Shown piece after piece: positions 17,881-63,373 of a DNA stretch of 64,000 nt. Position numbers and translations under genes: made by a program. The stretch is from Carcharhinus longimanus (lineage: Eukaryota): contig JASCQW010000119.1 in assembly GCA_030264375.1 (NCBI GenBank), positions 9,834,103 to 9,898,102 on the forward strand, read 5' to 3'. The notes under the pieces were generated by a model. It worked only from the letters and a program-made list of their open reading frames with translations, searched no databases and was not told where the DNA came from. The first letter of the stretch is position 1; every line of letters starts with the position of its first letter.

Positions 17881-17916
17881 AAGGAGATCTGTGCAAAGAT
17901 TTTCAGGAGCAGGCAG
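17881..17916 (+). CDS. Short coding exon E1 (36 nt, phase 1-1) of unidentified gene: (x)GDLCKDFQEQA
   Basis: Acceptor ttttgcttattcatattgtag, donor CAG|gtacga. Open in phase 1. Confidence 0.62.
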
Positions 17917-18871
17917 GTACGAGAAAAAATGAAGTCTCCAATCTTGATGAAATGGCACTGTTTTAACATTTTGCACATAAATAATAATAATAAAAAGAAA
18001 GAACTTGTGTGGTATATTTCCCTGAATTGCAGAAGATGTTATCAATTTGCAAATGCACAACATATCAGATTTACTTGAAATATTGTTCGATAACGTTCGA
18101 GATACTGTTCCATAAGGTCCAAATATTTGAAGTAATCTGCACGGAAAGCACGAGGACGGAACAATGTAGACAAAGTAAAACAGAAAAGTACGTATCTTGG
18201 CGTATGACAAATGTAGTATACAATTCAGAAGCTACCGAGTGATGGAAATAAGAATGGCAAATAGAAGACTCGATAACCTAATGAACGTTAATATAAAGAC
18301 AATCCAGAAGAGTAAAATAGGCATATAGGGGGAAAATGCTACCAAAAGCAGCTGTGCCAAAAAAAAAACAAACAAGGAAAATAATGACAGATGAAGGCTG
18401 AATATCTGGTGTTGGTGCTAAATAAAACAAAAAAAAATGTGCATTTGACTTCAGCAAGCATGAAATTGCTCGAAAAGTCCATATAAAAGCCAAAAATAAA
18501 TATCATTCTGGCACTGAATTTTTCTCCACACATGGTCTTAGTTCGCCTAAATTTGCATGTGGATTCACACGTACGTGTTACATAAAAAATGTGTTGACTG
18601 ATATTTCGAGAGACAAGGAATCAGAATGTGAATGAATGATGTCGCAGCTCCCTGTCCACATTCGATGTCATTGATGCCGGACCTCTAAAGTGTTACACAA
18701 AAGTGGAATGTTGTCCTGAAAACTACTCACACATATTCTAGAAGTCATGCTTAAGCATTAGGCATTAACATTATATTCGCAAAGAGAGGTCAGGACAAAA
18801 TTACGATTAACGTCAATAAAGATCAACACTTAATTAAAAGAACAGAATTTGTTTAGGACAATCATGTTGAT

Positions 18872-18990
18872 CAAGAACATGCGAATATACGAACCTGAGC
18901 ATGCATAGACCGCATGGCACTTCCGGGATCCATAGCATTCAATAATATCGTGGTTGAACTGCTTTTCAAATAAAATTTCCTGCCTAGCGA
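18872..18990 (-). mobile_element. Old CR1 3' end remnant
   Basis: AAGAACATGCGAA...CATTCAATAATATCGTGGTTGA resembles the reverse-complement 3' UTR. Confidence 0.5.
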
Positions 18991-19399
18991 TTCATGCACA
19001 AGGGGAATAATATCTCCATGTAATGTCTCAACGTTCCATGAACACGTTTAAACAATTTCCATTGTCAACATCGTCATTTTCACATGTTCGTTCATGATAC
19101 TTCATTTGCCAGGATGCTGCCTACTCATGTGATAAATTAACTTATAAATATTCGTCTGCGGCCTCTTTTCCTTTTATAACATGGCTTACAAACTAACATT
19201 TTGCTATAAGCAAACTAGCGACAAACAAAAACTGTGCTGTCCCCCAAAAATCTAAAACGCTGTACCGAGTTGAAATCCGAGCCATGGGCATTCTGGAACA
19301 CCACTCAGGACAACCTTCAAAATTGGTCGCTAATATTGCACAGCACGGACATGTGTGTTTCTAAATCATTCAAATGTAAACGGTATTGCTGTGTGGACA

Positions 19400-19527
19400 C
19401 TTAACCGTCTTTCCCATTCGTGGGCCTGAAAATCGGAGAATCATGACTGAGCTCAATGGAGCTTTGCATAGTCCACCTCCCACCCACTGTAATTCCTCTG
19501 GCAGGCAGGGCGGGAAAATTCAGGCCA
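19400..19527. mobile_element. Probable one arm of a non-autonomous DNA transposon (MITE)
   Basis: GC-richer patch ending GGCGGGAAAATTCAGGCC, like shark MITE termini as I recall them. No second inverted end found. Confidence 0.4.
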
Positions 19528-20159
19528 ATAAATTTGTTTTCACCAGGCAGCATAATATGCTGTTTAACTGCGAGTTGTAAGATCTATTCCTTCCTTCTAA
19601 GTAATTTCATTGTGTTCTTTGACGTGTAAAGTAATGGTTGATCAGTAGAATACAGGTAAAGTGGTGCCGCTGCATTCCATAAAAGTGAACGATTTAGTTT
19701 CTCTAGTCAATGGCATCAACATAAGATATATTTGATGACGGAATTGTTTTGCATAGAGTAGGAATTTTGGTAGGTAGTTTGTTCTTGTGATCTCAGGTTT
19801 TCTTCATATACATCGTTGAAAGAGAATCAAAATTCAGGCCAATAATTCCAAGAGTGGGGATAGCAGAAAACGAATACAAATTGTGTTCACCAGAAAGCGT
19901 ATCTCAACATTTAATCGGACCTTTCTGTATTTAAGGAATCAGAGGATGAAAGATAGAAACATGTAAAACCCAGTTAAATGACTTGATTGTTTCCAAGTCG
20001 GTAGAATCTCGCTCATCCAACATAAAAAGAAAATACCCAACGTGGAAGACAAGCGGAAGAGTCTGCGAATGTGTGTGCACACTCATGGACAGCTGCTGCA
20101 GAAACTGGCAGCAGAACGTTAAATTGATAAGGAGATATGAGCTTTAAATGGAAGTTGAA

Positions 20160-20760
20160 AAGAAATGTAAAATAAATGAGTTTTTTTATGAATCTGGATT
20201 AAACACTGTTTCTGGCGTATGTTGCTGTCCTGTGTATTATTCTGTGCACCACGTCCTGTAATGGGAAAACCTACACGAGAGAGCGGGAGCTCTTAAAAAA
20301 AAATAAAAAAGTAAATATATTGGATACACCAGCAGTGAAAACTTTGGCGATGGGGCAATGAATGCAATGTCTGCTAAGAATATTGAACGTTATGAAACGA
20401 CGGAGCATAATGGATAGAAAATAAAACTGTTTCCACTGCTGAAATATATTGTCTCAGTGGAGAATGGTTTAAGGTTACTTGACAAAGGAATAACAATGAC
20501 CTGTTCAAATGCGAATTATTATTTTGTACGAATTTGGTCTAGATTGTGTATAAGTGTTGCTTTGGCATCGTCCTAATGGACATATCTGTGCCAAATGTAA
20601 GCCTCAAATCTGATGAATGTGTTGTCTTTGGACAACAAAATAATTCTAACATATCAGCTATAGCCTCAGGTGTGGTTCATGGAAAGCACTGCACGAGACT
20701 GATGTTTTTATGTTTATTGTGTGACTCAATATTTCGGTGGAGAAATTGATTAAATTTGCT
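20160..20760 (+). mobile_element. Highly degraded CR1 3' third
   Basis: TGTGTATTATTCTGTGCACCAC (~CVQFWAP), AAACTGTTTCCACTG (~KLFPL) and a 3' UTR-like end. Confidence 0.45.
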
Positions 20761-21049
20761 AAGAAGTAAACGTAACCCATAAGGGAGTTTGGTTTCAGTA
20801 TTCTTTTTTTCAATTTCCCATGGTAAGCAAGTGTGTCATTGATTCGCTCAAAAAGAGGCTTGAGGCTAAATGAATGGAATGTCGATGGTTGGTGAGCGAC
20901 AGGAACTTAATGTAACTCTACGTTTGAACGAATGGTTACAATAATTACATTGTGTGTGGAAGGATGATTTCGTTCTCTTGTTCGACCACAACATTTTAGA
21001 TGTAATGATCAAAATCACTGTCATTCAATCTAAATTATATGATTCATAT

Positions 21050-21530
21050 ATGAACACTTCGATGAAACAATCTTCTCCATGTTTATCAGTGAACTCAATT
21101 CCTCTGCGTTTTCATTCTCCTGTTTTGGATTCACATGATTGTGCAACTGCAAAGAACAGCCATGTTTTGATGTTGAACTGCAGTATGCGAGTGGAATATG
21201 ATGGCTGCTCGTTCATGTTAGCACAGATAATTCCCTCATAAATTGAGCTTTTTCATCCAGGGACCACATTTCTCCCCATCGCTGGACTCTTTTCATGCCC
21301 CTCATCATCGACATGATTGAGAGCTATCCTTTTCTCTCTCTTTAAGGCCAATTAAAATCACCGCAAATCTAGCGGCCTTGCCTGTTCGGTTTGTTCGCTT
21401 CCAATATATTTAATACGTTAGTCCAAGCCTTCTATTTCCAATGCCCCGTTTTATCAATTTGCAAAAATTAACGCCATGCTGGACTTCATCCACCTTATTC
21501 ACGACATATCCTGCGATGTATATGTTTTGT
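21050..21530 (-). mobile_element. Degraded CR1 endonuclease fragment
   Basis: Minus strand GTCGTGAATAAGGTGGATGAAGTCCAG (~VVNKV.ELQ at the ORF2 start). Confidence 0.4.
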
Positions 21531-23061
21531 ATAATAACAGCAGCTGCAGTTTTGATGCTGATTTTAATGTTAGAAAATGAGAGCATTTCAAAGCATACTC
21601 CGAGGGAGGGACGTGAAGTTCAATGTGGAGAACGCTGGGAAAATTATCCTTTTTTCACCCCTGTAATCCTGAATGAATGATAAGATGTCTGATTCATCAT
21701 TCAGGTTGAAGGACAACACTGGAACTCAGTGAAAAAAGAATGTAGAACACGTGTACGAAAATCTTGCCAAAGCAATGGTTCAGCGACAGTGATAGCAGTN
21801 NNNNNNNNNATTGATATTCGGCTGAATTCAATAATATTGGATCAGAATATAATTAAATCGAGCCAACTTCTCAGCACGGAGCATTCAGTGGAAGAAAATC
21901 ACAGCTTTTGATTGTATGAATCTCCAACGGCATTGTTCATTTTGCGACAGCTTGCGGCCAAAAGCAATTTCAATGCAATGATGGCTAATCTGGCTGCCAC
22001 GCAGCAAAGACATATTTCCTTTCTCGAGCTGCTGTTCGGCTATCTTGGGGTACAATTGTCAGCACCGACAAAAACATAAGGTAGTAACAGCGCAGAAAAA
22101 AAAAACTTATTTTCTTCTGATTATATTCCATTTAATTTTGAATTTGAAATTTCTCACCCCTTGGTTGCGACTTTATGGTGACTGCTAACTTTTTCTGAGC
22201 TATTATCTATGCAAAATATTGTCTTGTAGTTTGATTCTGCCATGCATGTCTGATTTATTTTCCATCATCTGCGCAAATAGCTTTGACTTTGTTACTCTAC
22301 AAACCAAGAGTTTGGCGATTTTCTATGTTGTTCCCTTCAATTAGTGAAATATAAACTAGATCTGGATAAAATGGTTAAGGACTGTTTCCAGCAATCATAT
22401 TAATAGATACAGAATTTTAATTCGACCTGTTTCTGTGAAAACAATTAACATTTACCAGACTCCTAGAATTTCCACTCTCAGTGTTACCACAGACGGCGGC
22501 ACTCTTCAATCTCACGTTTCAATTATAAGAGAGTTGCGGCATTTAACTTGAAGGCATAGGTCGAGTGTGGAACCAAAGACTACATCTGGCGGCTGTTGAA
22601 CAAGCAAAAACAGCCAATACTATACCAGATCTGAATATTGTTTCCAGCCGGAAGATTTTAGACAAGTCGTGAAAGTTCCCGTTATAATTTCATTTTAGCT
22701 GTAAAGTCATTTTAGATTTGCGAAAATGGCCCACAAAGTTTTTTTTTCTCTGTTTCGTGCTCACAAAGGGATGATTAGGTTTCTTTTCAGCTATCCATTG
22801 GGCGTTACTTCTTCCTTCTTCACTCTGTTGTCTTGTTGAGAATGGCCTTCTGAATATTGGTGTAAGGACGAACTATACGAAACACCAAATATCCCATTTA
22901 ATTTGAAGCCTGGTTATATAGCATTTCGTTTAATACAGTAGGAGGAACTCAGGGAAAAAAAAAACGAATGAGAGATTGTGCACTTCTCAACAAGTTTAAT
23001 TAGCATTGCTATATTTTGACAAATCCTAAGCATGTGTCCTTTCTGTAAATTAATTCCATAG

Positions 23062-23088
23062 CAGAAGAACTCGTTGCAAAAGCGAAGG
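23062..23088 (+). CDS. Short coding exon E2 (27 nt, phase 1-1): AEELVAKAK
   Basis: Acceptor tttctgtaaattaattccatag, donor AGG|gtgagt. Open. Confidence 0.68.
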
Positions 23089-24313
23089 GTGAGTGTTCGA
23101 GAAGTACTGTCAATTGGTGTGGATTCAAACAGGAATGAGTATTTTTTCCGGAAACTTACAATGAACGAAAATGCAAAGGGAAATTTTGAGAGTAGGCGTT
23201 ATCATCCCGAAACAGAAACAACGCACAGTTCCTTGAATTGTTGCAATGCGAAGAGCTAACATACAAAAAGCACAAGTTGGTTATTATCCGAACCTCTGGT
23301 TCCAAGCGACCATTGGTTAAAATGATTCACATGAATCATGGAGAAAAAAACACGAGTTGTTATGTTGTTCCATGCACTGTTTGGCTGATGATCTCGGAAA
23401 TAAAAAGTAAAATTCGTTTGTTAATTAAAGCAGATTTGTGGGTTGCAGAGTAAGATTTATTGGGAGGATCATACTGGAGAAATTATACAATAAAAATAAG
23501 TATGGAATCATGATACCTTAACTTTTCAAATTGGATAAATTGGATAAAGTGCAAGAAAATCATATGCAACAAACTCTTCATGGAAATATGCTGAAAAGTG
23601 ATTTACCTTCGTGGAAGTTGGACAGAGATTTGGTCATTGTTTTTACCGATTGTAATTGACAGGGCCGAAATCAGACAAGGGAATCCAATATTCCTATCAT
23701 TTTACAGACTGTATTGTAGTTTCATTGATTGACTGTGTCGCTTTAACTGTCCCGACGAGTGGAGATGAAAGGTTCAGACTACATCCAAAAAAATCTAACT
23801 ACACTCACAATAAAATAATTCAACTAATAACATGCCTGATTGAATTTCATCTGCATGCTGTAATATGTATTTTTTTTCATCTGTGTCTTTCAGTATAGTG
23901 ACCAATTTATTTTATTTTGTGTCGTTAATTATGTTGCCTTGTAATAATTTTTGTGTTGCTATTTCACACTTTATGCTTTATGGTTATTCTCAACACATGG
24001 AGAGACATTTTGATTTGGACTGAAGCCATTGTAATTGACATGGAATCAGGATGTTTTAAACAACTAGGAATTACAACTTGTTCCATAAATTTGGATCTGT
24101 TCTTTGGAATGCTTATTGAAATGAATGGAATACATATGGTAATTGGTCAATGCTGGGGCTGATGAAGTACTGTTGTCAATTGGGATGCAAAAAAAAAGCT
24201 AATGACATGTTACTCACACATACTTAGCAGCATCTCCGAGTGATTGAAGCAATTTCTTGATGAAATTAATTGGAAGTTAGAAGAAATGTTTCGCAATACC
24301 TACAAACTTCGTT

Positions 24314-25295
24314 TGTTCCTTCCTAACATCCATTCTTCCAAATTTCCTACCCATTCCTCCCTCTCTCCCTTCCTTCCTCTCTTCCTTCCTCCATCTCCCG
24401 TTCCACCACCCTTGCCTTCTTTCCTCCCTTCTTCCGTTATTCCCTGCCTTCCTCCCTTCTTCCCTTCATTCCCTTCTCCCCTCAATTCCTTCCTTCAATT
24501 GCTTCCCTTAATTGCATCCTTCCTTCCTTCAATATTTCTTCCCTTTCTTCCTTCATTGTTCCTTCCTCCTTTCTGTACTTTCTTCCTTGTTCATTCCTTC
24601 CTTCCTTCCTTCCTTCCGTCCTTCCGTCCTTCCTTCCTTCGTGTCCTGCCCCTCTTTGTTTTTTTTTTCCTTCTTTCTTGCCTTCCTTCTTCCTTTCCTT
24701 CCTTCCTTTCTTCTTTCCTTCCGCCCTTTCTTCCTTCATTTTTCCTTCCTTCTTCCCGTGCTTTCTTCCTTGCTCCTTGCTTCCTTCCTTTCTTCCTTTC
24801 TTCCTTACTTCTTTCCTTCCATCCTTCCTTTCATCTGTCCTACCTCCCTGCCTCCCTTCCTTCCTTCCAGACGTCCTCCTTCCTTTCTTTTTATTCCTTC
24901 CTTCCTCCCTGCCTTTCTTCCATCCTTCCTATGTCCTTCTTTCGTTCCTTCCTTCGTTCATCCCTTCCATCCTACCTTCCTTCCTGCCTTACTGCCTTCC
25001 ATCCTTCCTTCGTTTCAACCGCCCTTCACTTCTTCCTCTTTCCCTCCCTCCATATGATTTCCACCCTTCCTCGCTTCATCCATTCCTTCCTTCCTTCCAT
25101 CCTTCCTTCCTTCCTTCCATCCTTCCTTCCTTCATTCATTCATTCTATCCCTCTCTCCTTCCTTCCATTCTTCCATCCTCCCTCGATTTTTCCCTCCCTG
25201 CCTCCCTTCCCGTTCCCTCCTTTTTATCCATATGCATATTTCAAAGGACTTAGCTCCTCCCTCTCCTGTTCAATTTTCTTTTGCTCGCTCTCTCT
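24314..25295. repeat. ~1-kb degenerate (CCTT)n polypyrimidine tract
   Basis: Almost all C/T, dominated by CCTT/CCTC/CCAT units. Explains the F/L/P/S-rich ORFs here. Confidence 0.95.
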
Positions 25296-26269
25296 ATGCT
25301 TCGCATAGTCATTTCATGAAACGATTCAATCCATTGTGGCTAGTTGTGGTGTTGCATTTAATTTCTTATGCGATCTTTTCGGCTACGAGGTTCAAAGACC
25401 TGGATTCGTACCATGTTTCAATTTCTTTGGATGGACTACTACCAGTTGCATTCTCGCTATTTCGGTGCTGCATTTTAAACAATTTCTGACGAACCTTTCC
25501 CTGATTGCCAAATCTGTAAAGTAATGCGAATGCAGTGATGCATACGCAATGATATCTGCTTGTGCAAATTTGTAATTTGCATACTAAGATATCAGGAGGC
25601 TTTGCCACCGGTTATCATTTAAGAAATAATGCTCATTTTAGTTCGATACATTTCAGTATACAGCAAAGCTGTCAGCGGCTCGAGAGAAATGCATATTTCA
25701 AGTAGATCCTGGTTAAAGTATTTATCTCTGCTGCTGACCATCTAAGATTCTGAAGTATTGGGAATCACCTTGACCAATAAACTTCACATCACCCAGTTTT
25801 TATCAGTACGATTTGGAAAGACGAATGGGATTTATATTTCAGGGATGTAGTCACAACTTTTGATGCACCCATTCAGCACTCTTATATGGTCTTTTTAATC
25901 AATACGCAGTATTTCTGTATTTTTCCAATATCGACCACACCGAAGTCTTGCAGTAAAAAGGTGCCTAAAGAAAACTGGAGTGAATTAAATGGCGACATTG
26001 ACAATTCATATCCTTGTAGATTACAAGAATTACGGCCTCGACAAAATCGAACATCTTACACCGCCTGACAAAAAAAAATGTTATTCATTACATTTATTGT
26101 GATGCTTTTTGTTTGGGCGCCGAATCTTTTTTTTCATGTAAGCATTGAACACAACTGTAGCCACATAAGTCTGATTATTTGTAAATGTGGGAAATGATGA
26201 ATATAGTTGGCGATAGGAAGGCACATATGGTGTAAGTCTAGGTAAATTCCTGTTTACTTATATTTTCAG

Positions 26270-26305
26270 CACTTAACTTGTCGGAGGAAAGAGTGAGGTT
26301 ATTAG
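26270..26305 (+). CDS. Short coding exon E3 (36 nt, phase 1-1): ALNLSEERVRLL
   Basis: Acceptor tgtttacttatattttcag, donor TAG|gtaagt. Open only in phase 1. Confidence 0.72.
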
Positions 26306-26321
26306 GTAAGTATGAAATAAT

Positions 26322-27700
26322 GAGGTGACTGAAGATTGGATGATGGCAAGTGTTGGGCCTTTGTTCAAGCAGGGCTGCACGGAAAACCTGGGAACTACAG
26401 ACCAGTCAGATTATTGGCTGCAGTGAGTATGTCGTAGAAGGAATTCCAAACTGTAGGATCTACAAGCATTTACAAAGGTAAGGGCTGATTATGAACAGTC
26501 AGTAATGGAAAATCATATCTCACAAATATGATTGTGTTTTTGAAGGGATGAAGTTAGTGCAGTTGGTGTTATCTAACTGGAATTTAGCAAGGCCATTGCC
26601 AAGGTTATGTGTGAACGTTGTTGCATAAGGTTAATTCTCAAAGGATGCAGTTTCAGGTAGCCAACTTAATACGACATTTGTTTGATGACAATGGGCAGAG
26701 GGTCGTTGTGGAGAGTTGTATTTTTTTCAAAAAATGATGTGCCTCAGGGACTGGTGCTGGATCCATTGTTATTTGTAATTTTTATTAATGATTTGGCTGA
26801 AAATGTGGGTGATACGTTTAATAAATTGGCAGATGACACCGAAAGTATTTCGGATTGCACGGGGATGAGTCTTGTTCAATTGCATCAGTGGGCTGATGAA
26901 TGGCAGATGCATTTCAATTTTGATACATGTGAGCTGCTGTACTTTGGTAAATCAAACCAGGGGAGAACATACTCTGTATATGGTGCATTGTTGGGTAGAG
27001 TTGGAGGACAAAGAAGTCCATCGGTACAGATTCATAGTTCTTTGAGAGTGGAGTCACAGGTGGACAAAGTGGTAAAGGAGTCGCTCGGCATGCTTGGTTT
27101 CGCTGGACAGTACATTGGATATTGGAGTTAGGACATCTTGATGGACTTACCAACACGATATTGGTCATGGCACACTTGTGCAGTGTGTGCAGTTCTGATC
27201 ACTCAATCATAAAAAATGATATTATTAAACTAAATGTGTGCAGGAAACATTCACTCACGAGGATGCGTGTGGAACTTGATGGTTTGAGTTAGAAGGAGAG
27301 GGTGAATAGATTGGGACCATTTTCCCTGGAGCGTATGAGATTTAGGGATGCTCTGATCGAGTTCTAAAAAGTAATGAGATGTATCAATCAGTCACACAAT
27401 CCGCAACATTTCCCAAAGTAGGGAAGTCTAAGACTAGAAGTAATAAGTTTAAGCTATGTGAGGACGATACAAAAGTGTCCAGAGGGACAGTGTTTTCACA
27501 TAGAGGCTGATAAGTGTATGGAACACTCTGCCTGACATGGGAATCCATGCGGCTACAATTTTGTCTTAAACACACGAAGACAGTTGCAAGAGTAGGATGG
27601 TTACCGAGCGACATGTGCCAACCACGGGCAAAAAGACTAGTTTGGAGCTTGACCAAAGGGGAGGCACGGAGATATTGGGCCGAGGAGCCTGCTTCCATGC
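26322..27700 (+). mobile_element. Old CR1 RT region and 3' UTR
   Basis: EDW..A.V.PLFK, GNYRPV, DVPQGLVLDPLLFVIFINDL, KLADDT, WADEWQMHFN, ending GGGCCGAGGAGCCTGCTTCCATGC. Confidence 0.9.
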
Positions 27701-29401
27701 NNNNNNNNNNGAGAGCTGCCCTGTTGCAGGTCTGGTCCCAAAGAGACAGCAGTTTTATATGTTGTGGGTTTTTTTTGTTCAACTCTGTCGATCGAATAAA
27801 TGGATGGCAGTCGCTTGAATGCCTTTTTCTTTCAAAATTCCTGTTTGGACTGGCAAGTTAGTTTTAGATTGTCTGAAGCAATTGGATTTGTTTTTTTTTC
27901 ACTCTTTGTGCGATAGTTGCATTGTTGCTACGATGATTTCATAATTATTCAACTGTGTTTGTAATTTAAATTGCGTTAAGATCTGTCACAGTGGTGTAAA
28001 CGAGATTCAGACCATGCATAAGGCAAACCATAAGGCAAAATGTCACTGTTCTGCCATATCTCAATTAAGTAGTAAAGTGATTGTGAAGGACATCAAATAT
28101 GTTGCGTACACTCGTTTCCCTTTCTTTTGTTTTTCTGTTCATGTGCGACAAATACATCCTGGACATTGTCTACACAATATGGTATGATTTCATAACGGGC
28201 AGTCACCTGAATGGGAAGTGCCTGTCCAGTGCCCATTAAAAAGGCGTCAAATACAATTAAGCCAACACTTCGAAGAAGGCAGAAAACTTTAAACAAAATC
28301 AGAGTATATTTTTAGCCATCTGCTATTTAAAAAAAGAAAAAAAAATCATACTGCTATTTGGCAGATTGAATTAGATGCGCGATTGAAGTTATTGTTTCTT
28401 CTGTTAATGTAAGCAACATCATATCAGTGAATGGTCCTTGGTTTGCTATGTTTGATATCTTCATTCATTTACAATGGGAAAATTCCACTGTTATTGCTAC
28501 TTCTAGATTATAATTTAATATTTTGCATCAGTCTTCATTATTAGAAACAAACAAATTGTGTATTGCCCTCCATATTTTAGTGCCCGAATGAAGTTTTGAA
28601 GTATTTTGTTTTTGTCCCGTGGAAGAAGAAAGTAAACATTGTGAGAGAACGGGGGCATTGACAACTTCACAGAGGGAAAACTTGAGGATGCTTGATTGCC
28701 ATATTCATTTTTTCGTCGATTCTTAATTCGAGCTAAATACACTTAGCTTCGGAAAATCTCCTGGCCTTGCCATGGTACAGTGCTGTGGGAAGTCGCCAAC
28801 ATTTCTCAGCACAGATGGTGCCCACAGTTCACAATTAATCTCAAATTCAACAGTTACTTCAGTAATGTTCTCTGCTGGCTTTGGACTTATATAAAATCCT
28901 CAGTTTCCAAGAAGCGTCAAGCCCACAAACTACTACTCCAACATCAGAGAGCCATTTGAACATTACAATCTCTAAATTTAAGAGTGCAGCCCTCCCTCTT
29001 TCTTGAAATGATGGCACTGCAGCGTCACATTACTACCGAAGGTGCATCAGTGATGCAACCTCTTACAGCTTCCATTTCAGATAAGGTTTCGTAGAAAAAC
29101 TGGGAAGTCAAATACATTGTGTGATGCATTTGACGTGTGTAATCAATTTTATTATTTTATTAATCATATTCAAATGTCAGCATATTCTAATTCACAAGTA
29201 ACTTGGTATTTTAATGATATTTCTTTAAAGAGATTAAACATGGTTTCTTTTTCAGAGTTGGAGTTCAACGGCTTGATTGCAAGTAATTAACTCTTGTTTC
29301 CATCACAGAATTATTGTTTTGTTGCCTGTGTAAGTATGACATTTTTTGGCATCAAACTCTTGAATGTTTCACTATTTTCTATCTTCCAAATACACCATTA
29401 G

Positions 29402-29428
29402 AGCTGAAAAATAAATGTGGCGTCGAAG
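29402..29428 (+). CDS. Short coding exon E4 (27 nt, phase 1-1): ELKNKCGVE
   Basis: Acceptor attttctatcttccaaatacaccattag, donor AAG|gtgagt. Open. Confidence 0.7.
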
Positions 29429-50859: not shown

Positions 50860-53615
50860 AGGACATTTGACAGGAATTGATCCTGGAATGCAGACAATGT
50901 ATTTAAATATCATTAAGCTCCATCAGAAGACCCTTTGGCTTTCATATTAGCTGTCTAGGCAACAAAGGAATACCTGTCCGCTTTGAATATCGCCCTCTCA
51001 ATCTTCAATGTTGGGCTGATAATGGCAAGAAAATTTCCTTTCACATAAGAGATTGTAATGCAGGTTCTCAGAAGCAACGATCCAACCTGTCTCTGATCAA
51101 ACTCAATTGCATTTCATCAGTGATTCCTCAAAATTTGAGACTTTGAACATCAACATCAACCATAAATTTGAATGGCTAACTTCATTTTCGCTTGATACAA
51201 AAAAAAAACAGAGTTGTTGAAAGAATAAGAGTAAAGCTTCATGATAAATATCAATGTTCATAATCACCCGGAATGTGGTCTGCCTTTCAGCACTGAAGCG
51301 ATGTTCCTGATGACCAATTGTCTGTACATTCACCGTGAACATTAATTCCATTATTAATAATAAGAAAATATGCAACTCAGTCTCTTACACAAGGACTCTT
51401 CTGCACAGATCCCTGCTGCAAGGACTTTGAAAAGTTCATTTTTTTTTGATAGAATAAATTCGTCCTCACCAGAATAACACATTTGCAATCTTTTTTCAGA
51501 GATCATGCCTTCTGTTTCTCGATAATTCTGCCAAGTCTTTTAAAAATGCCATATGTTTCAATGAAGATCACCTTGGCTTCTGTCAAATTTCAAGGAGTCC
51601 TAACATGTTTGCCCTTTCCTTGTCAGACAATAGCTGCACATCTCAAATCACCCTGGTATATCTTCTCTGAACTACCACCAATAAGGCATTATATTTCTTT
51701 GTATCAGGGGATGATAACAGCACACAATATTACCAATGCAGAGCTGCAGATAAATGTCGCCACTTTTTTTCACAGAAACCACCTCAATGTAATGGCCAAC
51801 ATTCCAAGATTGTCTTTGTATAGCTGCTGTAGTTGTGTGAAAGCGTTCTGTGGTCCATGCGCAAGTGTCCACAATTCATTTCGGGTGATAGCATTCTGCA
51901 GCTTTTCTCTCTCTGAATTTCAGTAATACTCTGTAAGATATCAGTATCTTGTCAAATATCCTGAAACCACTCAAATCTTTCATTGTGTTGCGTATTTTGC
52001 TGCAGTATATTCACTTCCTTCCTCCAAACAATTTATACCATCTAAAACGTTGTTGTTCCGGCGCAGATTAGTGCATAAACTCACTGGTAGCATGTCGCTA
52101 AACTGCAAATTGGGTTGTAATCTCATGCGATGTTGCGAGGACATTTATCATTTCTCGTTCGATGTTAATTAACTATGTCTAATACCGTGGGTTCTTACAA
52201 TTAAGCATCAGTGACCTGACGTTCGGAAGATCAAAGATCAGAACAAGTAGATTTCTACATGTTCCGTCATTTCATCCCAATGGTAATATAGCCGTTAAAA
52301 AACTATTACATTTTCGCACATAATGTCCCTTTGGTAAAGTCTTATAATAACAAAGAACAACACAGCACGGGAAACAGGCCCTTCGGCCCAACGAGCCCGC
52401 GCCGCCGTCCCATTGTCTCAGTNNNNNNNNNNNNNNNNNNNNNNNNNNNNNNNNNNNNNNNNNNNNNNNNNNNNNNNNNNNNNNNNNNNNNNNNNNNNNN
52501 NNNNNNNNNNNNNNNNNNNNNNCAACCACCCTGCTCACGCAACCACAACAGGCCGAACACCGAAGAGGTCCAAACCTCAATTCAAGCGCCCAAGTTCCGC
52601 TTACCCAGATGATTCTCACGCCTTGAAGCTACCAAGAGTCTCCACAGGCCTCCAACGGCACCACTGGCTGGGCTGAAACCATCATCGCATGCATTAAGTC
52701 GTCTATATTCAATACAGTTCAACGCATGTATATTTCCCATCTTAACTATCTTACGCTCAGTAAGGAATCCAAATTAGAAATCAGGAAACTATGGAAGTCT
52801 CAAAGCAAACATTCATGTTGCAGTCTCTATGAGCTTTTCAGTTGATGTCAACTCACACACCCATTGAAGGAGACACACCGAAAATAGATGAAGGATTTGA
52901 AAACTATAATTTTACTTACGGGGATGAAACAAAATTCATTCGATGTAAATGCATGGGTGAAATTCCACTTGTAATTGCGCAATGCTTTTGTACACAAATA
53001 TTCAAAATAATTCGACATCTCCCTTGTTCATTAAGGAAACTTAGTTCTGGCTTCCAATAATTCGATTCCTATATTTGAAAGTACACTGCCGATTTTTCAT
53101 TAGCTATTCCTAATCCAAAATGTGGTGGAAACTGACAAGCACGATAAAATTATTATAGTTTCAGCACGATTTCTCTGGTAGTAGCGCTGAAAGTGCCAAT
53201 AAATAAATAAATTTTAAATATTTGCAAATTTCGTGTAACTGCAGTGAAAACCACATCGGACCCAACTGACATGCACCGTCTCCTGAATATATTTAATACA
53301 CTGGCTTCATCCACTTCCTGTGGTAATGAATTGCACAGGTTCACCCCGCTTTGTGTGAATAAATGTCTCCTCATCTCCATTCTAAATGGCCTACCCCGAA
53401 ACATCAGAACATTCCCCCTTGATTTGTTCTCCTCTACCATCGAGAATGTCGTCCTTGCAGCTAGCCTGTCTCGTTATATTCGAAATTCATTAGTCTTATA
53501 CGTTTTCTAATTCGATGGCTATTGTAAGTCCATGCGTCCTCTCCCTCCTTCCTTTCAACTCCTCCTTCCATGGATTGAAACATCCCTAATCCGCCCATGT
53601 GTGCCTGCGCTGAGG
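50860..53615 (+). repeat. Tandem segmental duplication, copy 2 (middle lies in gap 52423-52522)
   Basis: The junction CTG-AGG-ACA joins the unit end (CTGAGGCC, 53610) to the unit start (CCCAGGACA, 44088). Confidence 0.93.
52344..52422 (-). mobile_element. CR1 3' end, family C-like, present only in duplication copy 2
   Basis: AACAAAGAACAACACAGCACGGGAAACAGGCCCTTCGGCCCAACGAGCCCGCGCC resembles the reverse complement of 42070-42135. Absent at the matching site (~45566) of copy 1. Confidence 0.85.
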
Positions 53616-56229
53616 CCTTGTGGGCGTCTTCGGATGCTGACACCAAAGAGCTCGGTCGAACTGACATGTCAGCACCACATTGCTGATAGTTATATTCGGA
53701 TTTCACTTGTCTCGTGAGCGTAAGTACAGCTAAATTAATTTGCACTTTCCACATGTCCTTTTTTTATTATTTCAAGCCTTTAAAGATAATGTTCCTCAGC
53801 ATGTCTAAGTTATTCACGTCAATTCTCGTTAGCAGCTCTTGATAAAGTGCTTAATCGAGAATATTTACTTTTTGGGCGTATTTCTATGTTATGGGAAGTT
53901 TGGATCAAATTGCGTTTTTCCAATTGTGCTTTCCAATTGTGATGATTCTTGCTAATTTTTACTTCATATTTATATTCATCCCATGATACAACAAAAAAAG
54001 TTGATCCATTATCACCACTAAGGTTACGAGATCCTAACAAAGTTTATTTTTAAAGAGAACGCATGACTTCGGCAATAAGCTCAAATTGAACTGTTTCCCT
54101 TGCAATCGCTTAACTGTTGTGTCAGTAAGCACGTTGTCAAAATATAGCTGATTCTTTTGATAAATTGTTTCCCTGTCCGTTCATGCCTGATTTGCATTGA
54201 TTCCCTTCATAGCGGTTAGGAGAGCATACTTTTTCCGTTCAATCATATCGTTGTGCGTTCTTTGGGTGCCATGATGAGCATGTGTAACAATTATTGCTGT
54301 GAACGTGGAACGCTTGCAAAATGTCATGCTATTAAATTTGTAGTGTTTCTGTTGGACTAAAGCTTTCGTGAAACTAAGGTGTTATGCATGCCTGTCACAC
54401 AGATTGTCCACCAGTTGCGAGACACAGTAGCATTCAAGCCTCTGCAGGAATGTTCCAATACTTACAGCGACTCAACATTACTTTAACACCAATTTTTTTT
54501 CAAGGTTGGATTTATCTCGCCGCCTGATAGCTGTGCTGTATGTTTCAAAGTATATTTGTGTTGATACTTTTGTTGTATGTGATTACGTAGGTAGAACGCC
54601 CATGTGTTTTACATGACTCTATAGGTAGTCGTTTAATTTTCGAAGATGCATAATTACGTGAGTCAGATTGTGACCGTGGAAAGAGTGAATGCTGGTGTGA
54701 CGTGTAATATTAGTATGCAGATGGTTAACTGAGACATGCTCATGTGCATTTTTTTTAACGTGTGTTGATGAGACTCTCAGTTACGTTGGGATTTTTTTAA
54801 TGGACATTCGGTGAGCACCTTGGAACGCTGTGACTTGCTGAATAGATTGGAATGGCGCCACATCAATTGGCGCAGAATATTGAGTTGAGTACGATGCTGG
54901 ATTATTATTTAGGTAATTGCCTGAGGCAGAAACTGATTGTTTCAATGTGCAAGACGAAATAATGTTGGACCTTAGCTGAATAGGGGAGTTATTTGGACAG
55001 TACCTGACTTGGCGTGTTGGATATTAGTGTAGATTGATACTTAGCTGGGTTGCGAGTTGCTTGAATTGCAGAATGATATGTAGCTGAATAGCGGAACAGA
55101 ACAAGTTGACCAGGTTAATGTTTGCATCGCTTGTCGTGTTCTAATTTCTGTCTCTGGCAGTGTTGAAACGTGATTAAACAAATTAACTTATTTGATACAT
55201 CATTGGGTCGACGACGAATATGCCTAGGAGAGGTAGATCTGTTTGGAAATGAGTTGTGCTCTTGAGCGAGTTGAAGTTTGGTGAATGATTGTGGGAGGCA
55301 GCGAACAAGGAATGTTTGCACATTTTTTTTTTAACTTGGCGAGTTGGCTTGTTCTGTGATTTTTTTTTGATGTGGGAATGTGTCAAAGAGAATAATTAAA
55401 GATACAATATTGCCCACAAGAGATGCAGATCACATTTTTTTCTTTCTGTTTGTTTTAAAGCTGTGAGATTTTGTAATTACTTTTCCTCTGCCCTCCCGAA
55501 GTATGGTGCAGATGCAAGCATTCTATTATTGTTTAATGTGAAATACTTGACAAAGCAAGCAATGTGGGAGATGGATTACGTCAGGGACTAACATTCTTCA
55601 AAATCGATATCCAACACGGGCACGATGTATTGCATTTCGGGCTGCAGTAGAAAGCCACGAAGGAAATGGTGGATGTTTTTTTTTAATAACCGTTACAGGG
55701 TTCTATTCAGGCTCACTGGGCTTAGAAGTCCGGGCAAGTTGTACGTTTTGCAAAAAAAAATGCTGCTATGGGAAGCTAACCAAAATGAGACGACTGCCAA
55801 TTTTGCTTTGGCTCTCCACCGTACGTTCGAAATTCCCTGAGGATCAGACTGCAGTGTCACTGATTGCTGTGGCATAGTCAGCATGTCTTTCTTCCGGGAT
55901 GATCAAGTCTAAATAAGTAAATGTTTTTGTTTTTTGGCAATTGCTAAGGAGGATTGCAAGTCACAGTGTTATGCACACAGCTGTTAAACGATTTAGTGTG
56001 AAACTTGAGATGTTCCCTTGTCCCAGACTGAAAATAAATCTAATTTAATGTTAAGCAATGTATCGTCGGAAGTAGGAGCGAGTTTTTGGTCCATGGCCAG
56101 ATGAAAAGTGATGAAAGGTTTTACGACTGCAATTCGGTTCTCCCTGGAATTTTATGTAGGTCAGTGCTTGTTCTAAAAGGTTTATGTGGCAACATATAAG
56201 TGTGATGGCAATATATACAATATGTATCA

Positions 56230-56875
56230 CAAATGACCACGTTGTTGGTACAGAGAGGCAAACAGCTGTCTCAAGAATGACTGCGTGAGCAGGAAGTTGG
56301 GAAATGGAGTTCAATGAAAAGCAACATCTTATTGAACATACTTGCGAAGCGAAAACTATACAGAGGAATACTCAATGAGTTGAAACATTTTAAGTGGATA
56401 TTCTGAAGCGAGAGAGAATTAAATCAATATCGATTATTGTGTAAAATTTGCAGGGCACGTTGATCAGCCGCTCAAACAAAACATTATTCTTGTTTGATGG
56501 CAAAATGTCCAATGCAAGTCAATATGTGTTGATGCAACAATGTCCATCATTTTTCAAGGCCTTAGCTGCAGTTTCATGTACGTTTTTGAATATAACATTA
56601 TTTGGAAGAATTAACACCATTAATTAGCACATGCAAGTGTGATTTCTAAACTTAAAATTTGGACCTCCACAGAGAAATTGGTTATGCTTGGTTGCCTACT
56701 TCAGGATTGAAGAGGGAAGTGCAAAAATATTTGCGCTGTACAAAGTTATATGTTATGAAAAAAGAAGATTAACAGGCAAGATATCACACCNNNNNNNNNN
56801 CCACCCCCCCCCCCCCCCCCACCCTTCATCCCAACGCGTTTGAGAAATCAATTGTCAGAGAGGATGGATGGAAGG
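56230..56875 (+). mobile_element. Highly degraded CR1 RT 3' part
   Basis: TGGGAAATGGAGTTCAAT (~WQMEFN) and later weakly colinear motifs. Confidence 0.5.
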
Positions 56876-59800
56876 TCATCTGGTGAGGAAAAGGAAAGGT
56901 AAGGTGTCAAAACTCGTGGCCAGTATCGGACCCACGTGATTTTCATTGCTTATCCGGCTGGCTACTTTTGGAAAGTGAGCTGATTTAAAATGATGCCTCG
57001 GGCTGACGTACAATAATTTGTATGACTGTGGACCAGGAGATGTGAAAACGTTGATTTGGGAAATGTTTGCTGGTACAAGGACGATGGGATCATCACGCTC
57101 GTTCTCCAATGTAGGTTCCCGACAGTTCCATAGTTGTAGCTTTGCAACGGAACGCCCTCGTCTAAAATGAATTGTCTCTTCATTATTAGATCAAATGATA
57201 AGGTTATTTTACTTATTTTACTTTAAAATAACCTTGGTTATTTTACTGAACGTTCTCCCTGTCCTTCAATATTCTATTTGTTTGGTACCCAACATTGTTG
57301 CAGTTTATGTCAGTACAGCAAAATAAGAAGTGTCAGCTATGTAAGCTGAAACCATGAATTTGAACAGCTCGCTTTCAGGCTTTCATTGCCAGCAATTTGC
57401 TCGCATGTGGCAACCCATTGAGTAATTGATAGCTGACTTCCTACTCTGCTCAACACCCCATAGCTCGTCGGGTAATTACCCAACAAATTTTGGAATGATC
57501 TTTGCCCGTTGTATTTTTTTTCTTGGCTGAATACTGAGCTCCTAGTGCAATATTGACTGCTATCCAACTATTTTTGCTGCATTGCTCCCGAATATAACTG
57601 CAATGGAAATTATATCACGTTCTAAATCGCATATTTCTCAATGAAAAGAGTGAAAATGTTTTCCAGATGTACTCAATTGCCGCTCAAAAATGCAACAGGA
57701 ACTGGTTGCTTCAAGCTTTCTCTCTACTGTTCTTATCAATCCATTGACAGGAAAGATTAACATATGGCATCCTGTCTGTTTTCCGCTGTCGCCATCATCC
57801 CAGGTTGAGTGTAAATCTCATGTTGGTGCATTGTTTGGATTCCTGCCATAGGAAACAAGGGTATTGGACGTACTTAATTGTCGGGGCTCTGGAGAAAGAA
57901 ATTATTAAAACAAAATATCCTCCTGGAAGAGGTTTTACAACACAATGTGATGCTGGAGATCATTTGGAGGCAAAAGGAGTGTGCCAACAATAAGCAACCA
58001 AATTATTGTATTTCTTGACACATTTGTCTCTTTGAAATACAAACTGTCCATATTTTAACTGCATTTTGTACCGTATGACCTTTTCAGGAAAGATAAATGT
58101 CTGTCTTCAGATTCAGTATACCATAGAAATGCACTTCATTGAGCAAATACTCATCGTGTTGCATTGGAGTGAAAAATGAACTGTTCAATTTCTCTCGGCG
58201 CTTTGTGCAACAATTAGGGAGAGCAATTTTGATTGTAGGATGCTCGTAACTTCCAAATGCAAATGCCATTTTGGCTGAGCCATGGAGAAGGGGAGACTTG
58301 CCATATAAATGAAGCATTGCAAGGATGAAACTCTGTGTCACAAAGCTGACAAATCAATTAATATTAATATCGAATAGCAGAATTACTGAAGTGGCACATT
58401 GCTCGCATGTGGGGTGGGGGGTGCGGGGTGGCGGGCGTGGCGACTTTAGCAAGATTTGTACAGGGAAAACCAATACTGAATTCCACGGAACCAAGATTAA
58501 CATGGCGAAGCAAATGTTTTGCAGGATGGATCGTGTACCATGAAAAAAACATTTCATACGTGATTCACGATTATTGCAAAGTGGGGGCTTCTACTTCCTC
58601 GCTCAAGATATACATGTTCAGTGATTCCTTTTCAGAAAAAAAAACTGTTTAACTGAAAAGAATGGTGTCTGCAGTTGCCTGGAGTCTCGCTTGTGGCGGC
58701 AGCTGCGCACAACGCACTATACTGATCACAAATAGCGCCAAACATTGAGATGAATGGATCTTTGAGTACCTGCTATTTTTTTTATTTACATCAGTTGGAG
58801 AAAATGAGACAATTGGTTCTTACAGCTCTGGTTTTGAAACACCGTCAGGTGTTGTTGCAAGGGCCAAACAAAGCGACGGCGATGTGGCGTGAACAAAGGA
58901 TTAAGAGGATCATGCTGAGCACCGTGAGGTGTGTGTGACGATGAGGCATTTAGCATAACTGAATCTGTCACAGCTGGCTGAAAAGTGAAATGCTTGTCGT
59001 GCAATGAAACAGGGACCAAATGATGGCAAATATTTTTATTTCTCACCAGTACCATATTTGTGAGCAGGAACTACTGTACGCAAAGGCAATACAATGCTAA
59101 TGGGCGTGCAAGTTTCTGTGACAATAAATTTCATGTATCATTGTATGGTTATGTACGGACTGCTTCATGAGTTAGACTGCAGATTTGTTAGAAGGTTCAC
59201 CATTGTCGCAGCCTCAAGGGCAACAGCGGATATATAATCGAGATGGTGTAGACAATGAAACAACATTCCAATCAAATTCTAAGAAAATATTGAGCATCTT
59301 GCAGTGAGTTACTTGCCAAATAATTAGCATGGCCACAAATCGCTTGCCAACGAAAATCAATTAATCCATGACGTTTCACAAATCCTCGAGAGGCAGGGTT
59401 TGCATCAGCCGGATTGTGATTGATGGATATGTGTTTCAATTATGTCGAATGGTTAATTTGTTGCACATACGCTCTGCTGGGAAATCTTTGAGCGGGAATA
59501 GAAACATTAATAGGCCGAAATATATTTAACTCTCTGATTGATCATCTGACCTGTGATCAACGTGGCACAAAAATAGGTGTGTCTTATATTTTCCAGTGTT
59601 TTTTTTTCATGATACTTGCATCCTCATTGATTCCCAGGTGTCGTAATTGTTTGCTACAACGTCCCCTCCCCATTTCATCAATTACATTATTTGTTTAATG
59701 TTGTCAAGTGGTATCATCAGAATGCTTGGCTACATACATTTCCAAGTAATGCAGGAAGCAGAGTCGCACAGAAGGATAATTTTGGTCAATCACCATCAAA

Positions 59801-60392
59801 ACAGCAAGAAGGAGAAAGGAGACTGGGCTGCAGAAGGTGACCTCAAGCAACACGGACAAGTGAGCATGAGTACAGGTATATGTTCAGATAATAGTTTCGC
59901 AATCAAATTAACCTGCTTCAAGTTACGTCACATTCTCACAAATAATGGCTGAAACAATGCAAACCGGTCAAATAGAATACCGTGCCTTGTTCAGGTAATT
60001 CAGCTGGGCAACTGGCTTGGAATCGTATGAAAATGAGGGAGTGGAGGGTGTATTTGCAACTTCAGGGGCTTCATTGACGGGGAAAAAAAAGCAGACAGGC
60101 CCTTCGCAGAGTTCTTCCACAATGATTCCAACCAGAATGTTGCACCATATTGTTACACAAATGTTACACGTCCTCTTTGTTTCCACATTGGGGTTGAAGC
60201 AACTCATCATGCGCGTCACTTTGTTTTGACTACACCTTTTCACTTAACCCTGTTGTGTGCAGCAGCTTATCCACTTTTCCCACCAACGGAAGCAGGTTTC
60301 TGGTTGCACTTAATAGACTACAAGCTGAAACCATCCGAACAGTCCAGCTGAGAAATGCGATATGTTCATCTCATTCCGATCCCAGGGAATGA

Positions 60393-60719
60393 TCCCGGGT
60401 GTTAGCGATGGAAAGATGGTAGGAGTGGAGGGCCTGAATGACATTACTGTTACTAGAGAGGCAGTGCTCGAAAGACTGGAGGGACTGATTGTGGACAAGT
60501 CCCCAGGACCGGATGGAATGCATCCAAGGGTTCTGAAAGAAATGGCNNNNNNNNNNNNNNNNNNNNNNNNNNNNNNNNNNNNNNNNNNNNNNNNNNNNNN
60601 NNNNNNNNNNNNNNNNNNNNNNNNNNNNNNNNNNNNNNNNNNNNNNATCTTATTGAATGGCGGGGCAAGCTCGAAGGGCTAGATGGCCTACTCCTGCTCC
60701 TATTTCTTATGTTCTTATG
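60393..60719 (+). mobile_element. Young CR1 family A copy
   Basis: ITVTREAVLERLEGLIVDKSPGPDGMHPRVLKEM, gap, 3' UTR and tail. GAATGA direct repeat at 60387-60392 / 60719-60724. Confidence 0.92.
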
Positions 60720-62279
60720 AATGACGCCTCCAGCAGTATTCACATGCGTTAGACGAGGACATGAAGGGAGCTATTGCTGAACAGTAGTCCTGCTCGTTGT
60801 CTTGCACTTTATTATGCTGTGGCATCGACGAAGTATATTCACTTTTTAATGCCAATTGCTGCAAAGACGACCTGGAGGAGTAATCACTAAGTTTATGTCG
60901 GTCAAAAAAAAATCAAAAAAGGGGGCTTGGAGGAATGAAAGGTGTTCAGAATTCAAGACTTCGACGCAATGTGACGCCTTTAGGCAGTTGACGTCCGGCG
61001 CTTACCGCTTTACGTCAAGGTAATTCTTCGAATGTTATTAAACATTAGGCTGCATTTACAAAATTACAATTGCAAATGTTCTTGTCCTTCATTCCCGGCT
61101 ACACACTCGTCAGCGTCCCAGCAAACGAAAGCATTCGAATGCGGTACTCTCTATTGGCCTCTAAAAATCTTTGGTCATTTTATGGTGTCAAAAACATCTG
61201 CTGAAATTATGCTGGACAAATTCAGTTAAAAAAACACAGTGACCCTTTTTTTCCCCGTGGATTTGAAACTAGAGTTCTACTCAGCATTGTGTTTCCATAA
61301 CTTCATTTTTTTCTACATTCCTGCTTCAAATCAGATGTTTTGTTTCCTGTCTGACCCGTGAATATAAACCCGCGAAAGTTTTCAATGAATATTTCACGGA
61401 ATATTGCCGATAACTCTTTAATTTCGTACATAATCAATAAAAAAATGGAGAGTGTAGCCATCATTGGACAAAAAGAAATCGAGATATTTGTTTTTTTTTC
61501 AGTAAGCATTAATGCTGCAGGGAAGTTCCGTGCAAATAAATAATCCCAATATCAATCCTGCTTTGGGGTATGTGGAAAATTTGTGCCAGTTTTGAATGTA
61601 CAAAATGGAGAGGAAAAAAACATATTCTCACGTTTTAATATGATAACATTTTTTAAAAAGAGAGACGCAATAAACAATACCATGTAGACCATACCACCAA
61701 AATTGCAACCACAAAGCGGAAAACTTTGGAAAATTACGTTGAGGACAGGACAAACTGAAAGTTCATACTCGTATTGCAAATGAAGAGGATTGTTCAGGAT
61801 TGTTTAGGGGATAAGCAACAACGCATAATGGTTTTCTTTGGGGAAGTGCATCCTACGCCAATAAAGTCACTTAATGCTGGGAATACTACTTCTGGTTAAT
61901 TATGATCATACCTGAATACAGGTAGTTCTCTTTCAGCTGGCATGATCTTGCTTTTTGCTCTTGTTTTGAAGAATCACGGGCAAATAGTTAAAACAAAAAC
62001 TCAACTCACGTTGGACTGCGGACAACTGATTAGTTCGGATGGAGGATTGAATGAGCAAAATAAAATAGAAGGTCGTGAAAAAATGTATGATATTCTAGTT
62101 GGCAAGTTGTAACTGACGTGTTACCAAAGGGTTCTTCCCTCTTTCCCTAACTATTTAAATTTCGCATTAATTAATTGCATAAAGACATGCAAGGTNNNNN
62201 NNNNNAATTTGGTGGGGCAGGAAGTTCCGATGATGAAGTAAAAAAAAGAAGTTTACAGATTGTGGGAAAATTTGAAATT

Positions 62280-62580
62280 GGAAGTTCAATGTCGATAAGA
62301 GTGAACTTATCGATTTGGTTTAGAAACTGCAAAGGTATGTTATTATCCAAGTGGAATTTGGGAACCTGTTTTTGCAATGTGATACAAGGGCCTTCGCGAT
62401 TGAATGACACAAATGTGTCAACGAATAGATCAAAAGAAGTGATCTGTTTTTGTGACTCCACGTGATATTAGTGGGGGTGGGAATTAGAATATCCTGTAAA
62501 TTTTTGCTCCTCTTACTCGAGGAAGGATATAGTTGCCTTGGACGTGGTTCAGGAGAAGTTCACTGGGTTGATTCCAGAGT
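62280..62580 (+). mobile_element. Degraded CR1 RT fragment
   Basis: AGGAAGGATATAGTTGCCTTGGAC..GTTCAG..TTCACTGGGTTGATTCCAG (~RKDI.ALE.VQRRFT.LIP). Confidence 0.65.
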
Positions 62581-62581
62581 T

Positions 62582-62745
62582 GAGCGTGTTTGGCACGTGA
62601 GAGGAAACAGGAGCATCCGGAGGAAACCCACGCAGACATGGACAGAAAGCGAAAACTGCACACCGACAGTGACTGGAGGTAGGAATTGATCCCGGATCCC
62701 TGGTACTCTGAGGCAGCAGGGATAACCACTGTGCTGTCATGCCTC
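62582..62745 (-). mobile_element. HE1-type SINE, 5' half
   Basis: GGAAACAGGAGCATCCGGAGGAAACCCACGCAGACA...CCCTGG..CT.TGAGGCAGCAG..TAACCACTGTGC. Confidence 0.88.
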
Positions 62746-63346
62746 CCGGAAAACTCTCCTCGTGCATTCCTTCATTATCAATCAATCAATTGGCTACTTC
62801 AAAATCCCACACCAACTATGCCATGTGAAATCTTTCCCTACCGGGTAAACGGCCGCCAAAATAAAATTATCTTCGCAGAAATTCTGGGCATTCGACCGAG
62901 GTTTATTTCAGTTGCTCAAAAAAGTTTTTATATGTAAGGTTCCATGCTGCTATAAGTTGTCCCTCGAAATATTTGCCGACCATTTTGATGCTAAAGTTAA
63001 CAAGTCGAAAGGCTATTTAACAGGTCTTTTAATTAACTTTTTTGTTTCATCCATAGCTAATTCGAGATGTATACTTAACCGGAATACAATGATAATTTCA
63101 GTGTATTGCTCAAAATGATATGAGCAAAAAGGCAGATTCTGAGGCATTGCCCACTATGTCAAGCCATATCCAAATTATAATCCATGATCCATGTGCCTAT
63201 CGACTATTGGCATTAACAACGGGAAAAATGCAATCCGCAGAATGACATACAAAATTTATTAAAGTGCCACATCAAATTATGTTTCAAATATTCATTTTGG
63301 TAGAACTGTCAAAATGCTAGTAAGTTGATTTTTTTCTCTTTTGCAG

Positions 63347-63373
63347 AACAAAAAATCCCCCTTCAATTGGAAG
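63347..63373 (+). CDS. Short coding exon E11 (27 nt, phase 1-1): EQKIPLQLE
   Basis: Strong acceptor tttttttctcttttgcag, donor AAG|gtaaaa. Open. Confidence 0.72.

Follow-up and report, generated by a model that had tools for sequence, protein, structure and literature searches.

The region considered here is a 64,000-nucleotide (nt) stretch of the 2.68-Gb genome of Carcharhinus longimanus (contig JASCQW010000119.1, here C119, positions 9834103-9898102), referred to below as the window; positions outside it follow an extended window numbering, in which the C119 position equals 9834102 plus the number. The window contains 11 very short + strand exons, which are real and make up about 5% of a far larger array. 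This array runs on both sides of the window and ends in an exon encoding a B30.2 domain, in agreement with an earlier sequence-only reading of the window, which had placed the 11 segments in the middle of a large gene. That reading could see only a fragment of a system whose true scale is about 1 Mb, about 200 exons, and six paralogues. The window is likely to be the interior of one gene of about 990 kb with about 200 symmetric phase-1 micro-exons, in which the signal-like exon, the array, and the B30.2 exon would form one transcript:

C119:9694798-9694858 (start -139,304), + strand, candidate signal-peptide exon
C119:9727102-9762230, + strand, first 27/36/30-nt exons
C119:9792884-9827001, + strand, run of about 11 21-nt exons
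1..64000 (C119:9834103-9898102), + strand, window interior with 11 exons
C119:9898449-10673934, + strand, about 170 further exons
C119:10681078-10681598 (start +846,976), + strand, terminal B30.2 exon

The 11 segments of the window were all confirmed, with an AG acceptor, a GT donor, the lengths originally assigned to them, and a final G:

17881..17916, + strand, exon 1, 36 nt, phase 1, with a cysteine at a heptad core position and a held-out splice score of 17.8
23062..23088, + strand, exon 2, 27 nt, phase 1, with a second acceptor at 23065
26270..26305, + strand, exon 3, 36 nt, phase 1
29402..29428, + strand, exon 4, 27 nt, phase 1
34884..34955, + strand, exon 5, 72 nt, phase 1, rich in Gln, Pro, Gly, and Ser
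36376..36405, + strand, exon 6, 30 nt, phase 1
38922..38951, + strand, exon 7, 30 nt, phase 1, with a second acceptor at 38925
43797..43823, + strand, exon 8, 27 nt, phase 1, with the lowest held-out splice score of the 11 (10.9)
45886..45912, + strand, exon 9, 27 nt, phase 1
48623..48658, + strand, exon 10, 36 nt, phase 1, with a second acceptor at 48620
63347..63373, + strand, exon 11, 27 nt, phase 1

The claim that these exons are stop-free in phase 1 was verified, since the joined exons contain no stop in that phase versus 8 and 5 stops in the remaining two frames; their lengths, all divisible by 3, also make them symmetric and skippable in frame, as had been proposed. The description of the acceptors as pyrimidine-rich was overstated for some of them, as scores on a generic splice matrix range from -1.8 to 7.1 and several are weak, although the AG itself is present in all 11. 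Tandem acceptors 3 nt apart (23062/23065, 38922/38925, and 48620/48623) could yield one-residue variants. The 72-nt exon (34884..34955) has no counterpart of that length in the working set of 201 exons described below, and is likely to be a hinge in the encoded rod that would interrupt the helix. A degenerate, intronic CCTT microsatellite at window positions 24368-25183 is a source of spurious long open reading frames.

The comparison with the opposite strand and with shuffled sequence, suggested with the original claim, gave a divided result within the window. A splice model trained on 163 exons from outside the window, with candidates kept at a score of at least 14, returned 41 candidates of any length on the + strand and 33 on the - strand, which is not decisive. 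When lengths were limited to 21, 27, 30, 36, and 72 nt, a set picked after data inspection, 10 candidates were found on the + strand (8 of them among the 11 exons above), against a mean of 1.4 and a maximum of 5 in shuffled sequences (n = 40). Because splice scores in the window alone failed to separate the strands, the flanks were read, 500 kb upstream and 900 kb downstream, and it is the whole span that is decisive. The generic matrix, run without a frame or length filter over -140 to +847 kb on both strands, identified 26 segments of 27 nt and 48 of 36 nt on the + strand versus 3 and 2 on the - strand, while other lengths averaged 1.9. Stops occur in 54, 3, and 31 of these 74 + strand segments in phases 0, 1, and 2, respectively, so that 71 of the 74 are open in phase 1. 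The idea that the segments are chance picks, for which the similar any-length counts on the two strands of the window would speak, or that they belong to triadin or junctin, is contradicted by these length spikes and this phase bias, by the B30.2 exon at the end of the array, and by the location of triadin/ASPH family matches: PF05279 has three matches genome-wide, on contigs C61 and C27 only and none at the locus. We give this explanation next to no credence.

The array, on the + strand, begins near -107 kb and ends near +840 kb, and a trained model calls the 201 exons that form the working set (96 of 27 nt, 80 of 36 nt, 12 of 21 nt, 9 of 30 nt, and 4 others), a set that depends on the threshold, includes some false calls, and misses exons inside 98.5 kb of gaps. 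Neighboring 27/36-nt pairs alternate in 114 of 164 cases, and the codon split across the junction encodes Glu in 134 of 195 junctions. Family-like exons that have good splice sites and contain in-frame stops lie at 477433, 566658, 458978, 641857, and 652344; these may be cassettes that have decayed, exons that truncate the product, or sequence errors. A GC replaces the GT donor on otherwise typical family exons at 219996, 408115, and 523812. Sixteen duplicated exon pairs with alignable flanks, together with two segmental duplications (2-3.7 kb long and 90% identical), show growth by the duplication of exon modules. The ratio of nonsynonymous to synonymous substitution rates (dN/dS) for these pairs is 0.57, indicating weak constraint from few sites in 16 non-independent pairs, and identity is 0.85 in exons versus 0.78 in flanks. 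CpG observed/expected is 0.69 over the 1.46-Mb region, a high value for a vertebrate.

Joining the 196 stop-free exons gives a predicted product of 1,997 residues that is 37% Lys plus Glu, 13% Leu, and less than 1% Pro, and whose hydrophobic periodicity, taken over the joined working-set peptide, peaks at 3.5, which bears out the charged, probably helical product foreseen from the window. Hydrophobic residues occupy positions 1, 4, 8, and 11 of the 36-nt exons in 74, 74, 82, and 54% of cases and position 3 of the 27-nt exons in 76%, so that a 36+27-nt pair corresponds to three heptads. The first cysteine lies at position 4 of a 36-nt exon, a core position, in 26 of the 36 Cys-bearing exons; a cysteine at core position d is said, following Zhou, Kay and Hodges in 1993, to suit an interchain disulfide. 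It is highly probable, as far as can be predicted from sequence, that the gene encodes a rod-like coiled coil, some 2,000 residues long, with a B30.2 domain at its end.

The terminal exon at +846,976 is in phase 1, encodes an intact 172-residue PRY-SPRY/B30.2 domain, and is open to a stop codon, with AATAAA beyond it; it is the single B30.2 exon in 1.46 Mb, and lies on the same strand as the array at its 3' end. The candidate signal-peptide exon at -139,304 is a single-copy, hydrophobic exon of 20 codons with a strong phase-1 donor, located 32 kb ahead of the first micro-exon on the same strand. It is one of 4 strict matches in the 1.46 Mb scanned, and its hydrophobic stretch includes Glu and His. 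Of the elements for which an inspection of the flanks had been advised, the B30.2 exon was thus found, while immunoglobulin (Ig) and transmembrane exons and PF05279 were not found there. A butyrophilin Ig-domain profile run over 1.46 Mb covering three 5' ends gave no match (best expect value (E) 1.6), whereas the same profile detects true Ig exons in this genome, with E values from 2e-8 to 3e-5. A TRIM RING/B-box profile, used without a positive control, gave no match over the 1.46 Mb (best E 0.12). No convincing phase-1 hydrophobic exon that could encode a transmembrane segment before the heptads was present among the candidates scanned in this gap-containing span, and regular-expression motif scans for Ig, PRY, and SPRY returned only noise. 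These results bear on a very unlikely alternative, namely that the gene encodes a conventional receptor of butyrophilin type whose tail is giant, its Ig and transmembrane exons being hidden in assembly gaps. The leader-like exon, the 21-nt heptad exons, and the B30.2 domain match the butyrophilin/BG plan, and the upstream gaps are of undefined size, but the Ig profile result argues against it.

The six best B30.2 matches genome-wide (the gene's own and five at 37-45% identity) all lie on C119, at 6.33-11.29 Mb. A - strand array starts head-to-head upstream of the gene and a further + strand array starts beyond its B30.2 exon; in a sample of 17 10-kb stretches, 12 hold family exons, in all 12 cases on the strand that the next B30.2 exon occupies. 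Six genes, each of roughly 0.4-1.1 Mb, are clustered here and fill about 5 Mb of the C119 chromosome. The head-to-head junction at -201 to -139 kb is mixed, with - strand exons at -164, -177, and -192 kb and a further leader-like exon on the + strand at -201445, and small scaffolded pieces in this interval may be misoriented. A 12-codon hydrophobic candidate ahead of gene D was judged unconvincing as a signal exon, and a tblastn comparison between the 5' regions of genes A and C returned only repeats and noise. A seventh, shorter member resides on contig C81 at 94.27-94.34 Mb, within a TRIM/Ig cluster; C81:85.9-102 Mb is a dense cluster with dozens of B30.2 exons and V-set exons. No Ig, RING, or B-box match was found in the 200 kb around the C81 member (the RING/B-box profile again lacking a positive control), and none of the 150 scored V-set matches, out of 928 candidates, lies on C119 at 6-12 Mb; both results count against a receptor with hidden Ig exons.

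A further alternative, which we regard as rather unlikely, is that the 990-kb array comprises several tandem genes or partly decayed copies, of which the last alone keeps a B30.2 domain, so that the window exons would be part of a unit that lacks B30.2 or is non-functional. Blocks are separated by spacings of 25-31 kb, one of them directly before the first exon of the window, but spacings of 15-30 kb are found throughout the array. The blocks also differ in style (a 21-nt block and a Cys-rich block), some exons contain stops, and segmental duplications are present; yet neither a second B30.2 exon nor an independent strict signal exon occurs within the span, paralogue E is of similar extent (about 1.1 Mb) and carries 21-nt exons toward its 5' side, and 71 of the 74 exons are open in phase 1.

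Relatives of the B30.2 domain were found in other cartilaginous fishes. In a profile search of 1.84 billion representatives, in which the best 150 of 4,410 matches were considered, 8 single-domain matches rank above TRIMs among those listed: catshark (2), electric ray, chimaera (2), basking shark, a skate cluster, and one contig-derived protein. Single-protein homologue searches returned only TRIM/NLR-type B30.2 domains or the query's own cluster. In a B30.2 tree of 43 hand-chosen rows, drawn with midpoint rooting and leaving out bony-fish long-coil proteins, 15 family rows (the 8 relatives and seven domains of this genome) are split from 28 TRIM, butyrophilin, and NLR rows by a 100/100 branch. 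Chimaera and ray butyrophilin B30.2 domains fall outside the family clade, and no Ig domain was recognized by eye among the family proteins inspected, two further points against the hidden-Ig receptor.

Chimaera XP_042192744 (1,697 residues) has a hydrophobic N-terminus, a long coil, and then a family B30.2 domain, and its coil weakly matches the joined peptide of this gene (E 2e-4). Skate XP_055510696 (295 residues) has a signal-like peptide, about 100 residues of coil, and then a family B30.2 domain; its AlphaFold model predicts helices at 17-57 and 67-103 and a B30.2 fold (mean predicted local distance difference test score (pLDDT) 75.5), and the best match of this model in a fold comparison is the TRIM7 B30.2 domain. 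Cassettes of 9 or 6 residues distinguish the isoform models of catshark, electric ray, and chimaera, and by analogy with these models in-frame skipping is likely to vary rod length. Micro-exons could also be mapped in order on catshark RefSeq proteins, 8 from the C81 member and 5 from gene B with 4-7 identities each, under a loose filter that some out-of-order matches passed too. Residues 64-115 of catshark XP_038668997 match a broken, repeat-like intronic stretch of this region, so that this model looks chimeric. Two teleost proteins of 1,721 and 1,409 residues were also noted, the former with 8 B30.2 stretches. In the ESM Atlas, three chordate long-SPRY clusters of 1,579 residues (137 members), 1,277 residues (55 members), and 1,802 residues ('isoform X51', 79 members) resemble this gene in length, in combining SPRY with coil-type names or families, and in having many isoforms by name; although a lead only, they suggest that the architecture probably exists in automatic annotation. 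Public models capture fragments under misleading names, such as TRIM39-like and nuclear-pore anchor-like. No paper describing this micro-exon B30.2 family was found in a literature search that covered few subscription journals. The nurse-shark plasma proteome paper (PMC9207270, in excerpt) does not mention SPRY, butyrophilin, or coiled in its main text.

The explanation that we favor, at about even confidence, is that the ~990-kb gene encodes a secreted, signal-led coiled-coil rod with a B30.2 domain whose length would be varied by exon skipping. The N-terminal signal peptide would likely export the rod. Since a 36+27-nt pair would form a three-heptad block and a 21-nt exon one heptad, the duplication and skipping of such symmetric, heptad-sized exons would alter rod length without breaking the frame. 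Two chains would zip in parallel and, once outside the cell, be cross-linked through core-position cysteines; the paired B30.2 heads, carried at the tip of a stalk up to ~300 nm long (2,000 residues x 0.15 nm), would bind a ligand. A cleavable signal combined with a B30.2 domain lacking a membrane anchor is suggested by the candidate exon here and by the skate model. By analogy with other B30.2 heads, a role in immune or barrier recognition seems most likely, and this is the weakest step of the proposal.

The main rival to secretion is an intracellular rod, a lesser possibility that still carries appreciable weight. The single gene and the rod would be the same, while the hydrophobic N-terminus would be a membrane anchor or absent and the rod and B30.2 domain would be cytoplasmic, in the manner of a butyrophilin or BG tail that lost its ectodomain, and would act as a long tether or cytoskeletal partner. 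Butyrophilin heptads and B30.2 domains are cytoplasmic (PMC4046983, in excerpt), BG tails carry cysteines and regulate actin-myosin (excerpts of PMC4046983 and PMC5938342), and a basic cluster follows the chimaera N-terminal hydrophobic stretch, as it would after a membrane anchor. The skate model, however, resembles a cleavable signal directly followed by coil, the candidate exon of this gene resembles a leader exon in its 20 codons and phase-1 end, and Glu and His inside the hydrophobic stretch would make a poor anchor. B30.2 proteins are moreover known from secreted venoms, as vespryns (PMC12730704, in excerpt).

Several observations weigh against the favored explanation of a single gene for a secreted rod. 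No signal peptide is present in the catshark 460-residue, ray 378-residue, and chimaera 230-residue models (three of the five relatives), as an intracellular rod would have it, although these models may be 5'-incomplete; scans of paralogues B, C, and D and the C81 member for a signal exon found none that was convincing. Residues 400-900 of the chimaera coil lack a periodicity peak at 3.5. The conserved cysteines of chicken BG tails are cytoplasmic (PMC5938342, in excerpt), so that cysteine is no proof of export. The gene model comes from genomic DNA, 5 of the 201 working-set exons contain stops, and 156 gaps totaling 98.5 kb of N (10%) fall within the gene span and could conceal Ig/transmembrane exons or a further B30.2 exon. 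Six 100-N gaps of undefined true size separate the signal-like exon from the first micro-exon, and a + strand family-like 36-nt exon at -149056, some 10 kb ahead of the signal-like exon, does not fit a simple model.

If the rod is secreted, it would represent a kind of B30.2 molecule that did not turn up in the literature searched, and would allow a study of the origin, expansion, and splicing of heptad micro-exon modules in the butyrophilin/BG lineage. With ~200 coding exons, averaging 31 nt, spread over about 1 Mb, the gene would rank among the most exon-rich vertebrate genes; titin has ~360 exons and nebulin ~180. Six such giant genes sit together on one chromosome. More tentatively, cartilaginous fishes may have kept for >400 million years a secreted family of recognition molecules with B30.2 heads on disulfide-linked rods up to ~300 nm long. 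Megabase genes holding hundreds of three-heptad micro-exon modules would encode them, and combinatorial skipping would set the reach; the family would thus be a vertebrate parallel to the micro-exon genes of schistosomes that fills about 5 Mb of one chromosome and has escaped annotation.

Known systems share parts of this design. TRIM proteins, of which TRIM39/A33-like are RefSeq names given to relatives, also have a coiled coil followed by a B30.2 domain, but in this gene no RING or B-box was found and the coil is built of micro-exons and far longer. Enterophilins are long leucine-zipper and B30.2 proteins without Ig domains that are mammalian and intracellular. Vespryns, such as ohanin, are B30.2 proteins found outside cells in secreted venoms (PMC12730704, in excerpt); ohanin differs in being a 107-residue snake venom protein without a long rod, and the likeness is by description, with no toxic role claimed. 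Schistosoma micro-exon genes combine a signal peptide with short exons mostly divisible by three and alternatively spliced isoforms, but have 10-20 exons and no coiled-coil/B30.2 plan in the accessible text (PMC10526429), making this a likeness of design only.

The closest parallels are the butyrophilin, MOG, and avian BG genes, to which the window exons had originally been compared. Chicken BG genes contain many tiny split-codon exons that encode a long coiled coil, vary in exon number, are alternatively spliced, and form a multigene cluster (excerpts of PMC4046983 and PMC5938342); this gene is alike in these respects, alternative splicing being indicated by the isoform models of relatives. 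BG genes, however, have an IgV domain and a transmembrane segment and exons mainly of 21 nt (27-37 in the cited genes), with no B30.2 domain described in the accessible parts of the same two sources, whereas this gene, in which no Ig or transmembrane exon was found, has a mainly 36+27-nt unit, ~200 exons over 1 Mb, and a B30.2 domain; 21-nt heptad exons of the BG-tail type account for 12 of its 201 working exons, and 27- or 36-nt exons for 176. Butyrophilins (BTN/BTNL), like this gene, have heptad exons followed by a terminal B30.2 exon, but their plan includes Ig domains, a transmembrane helix, and few heptads, with the heptads and B30.2 domain in the cytoplasm (PMC4046983, in excerpt), and the B30.2 domain of this gene falls in a separate clade. 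The original comparison therefore points in the right direction, because the gene ends in a B30.2 exon, but does not extend to membership: the gene uses the heptad-exon logic of butyrophilins and BG but is probably a member of neither.

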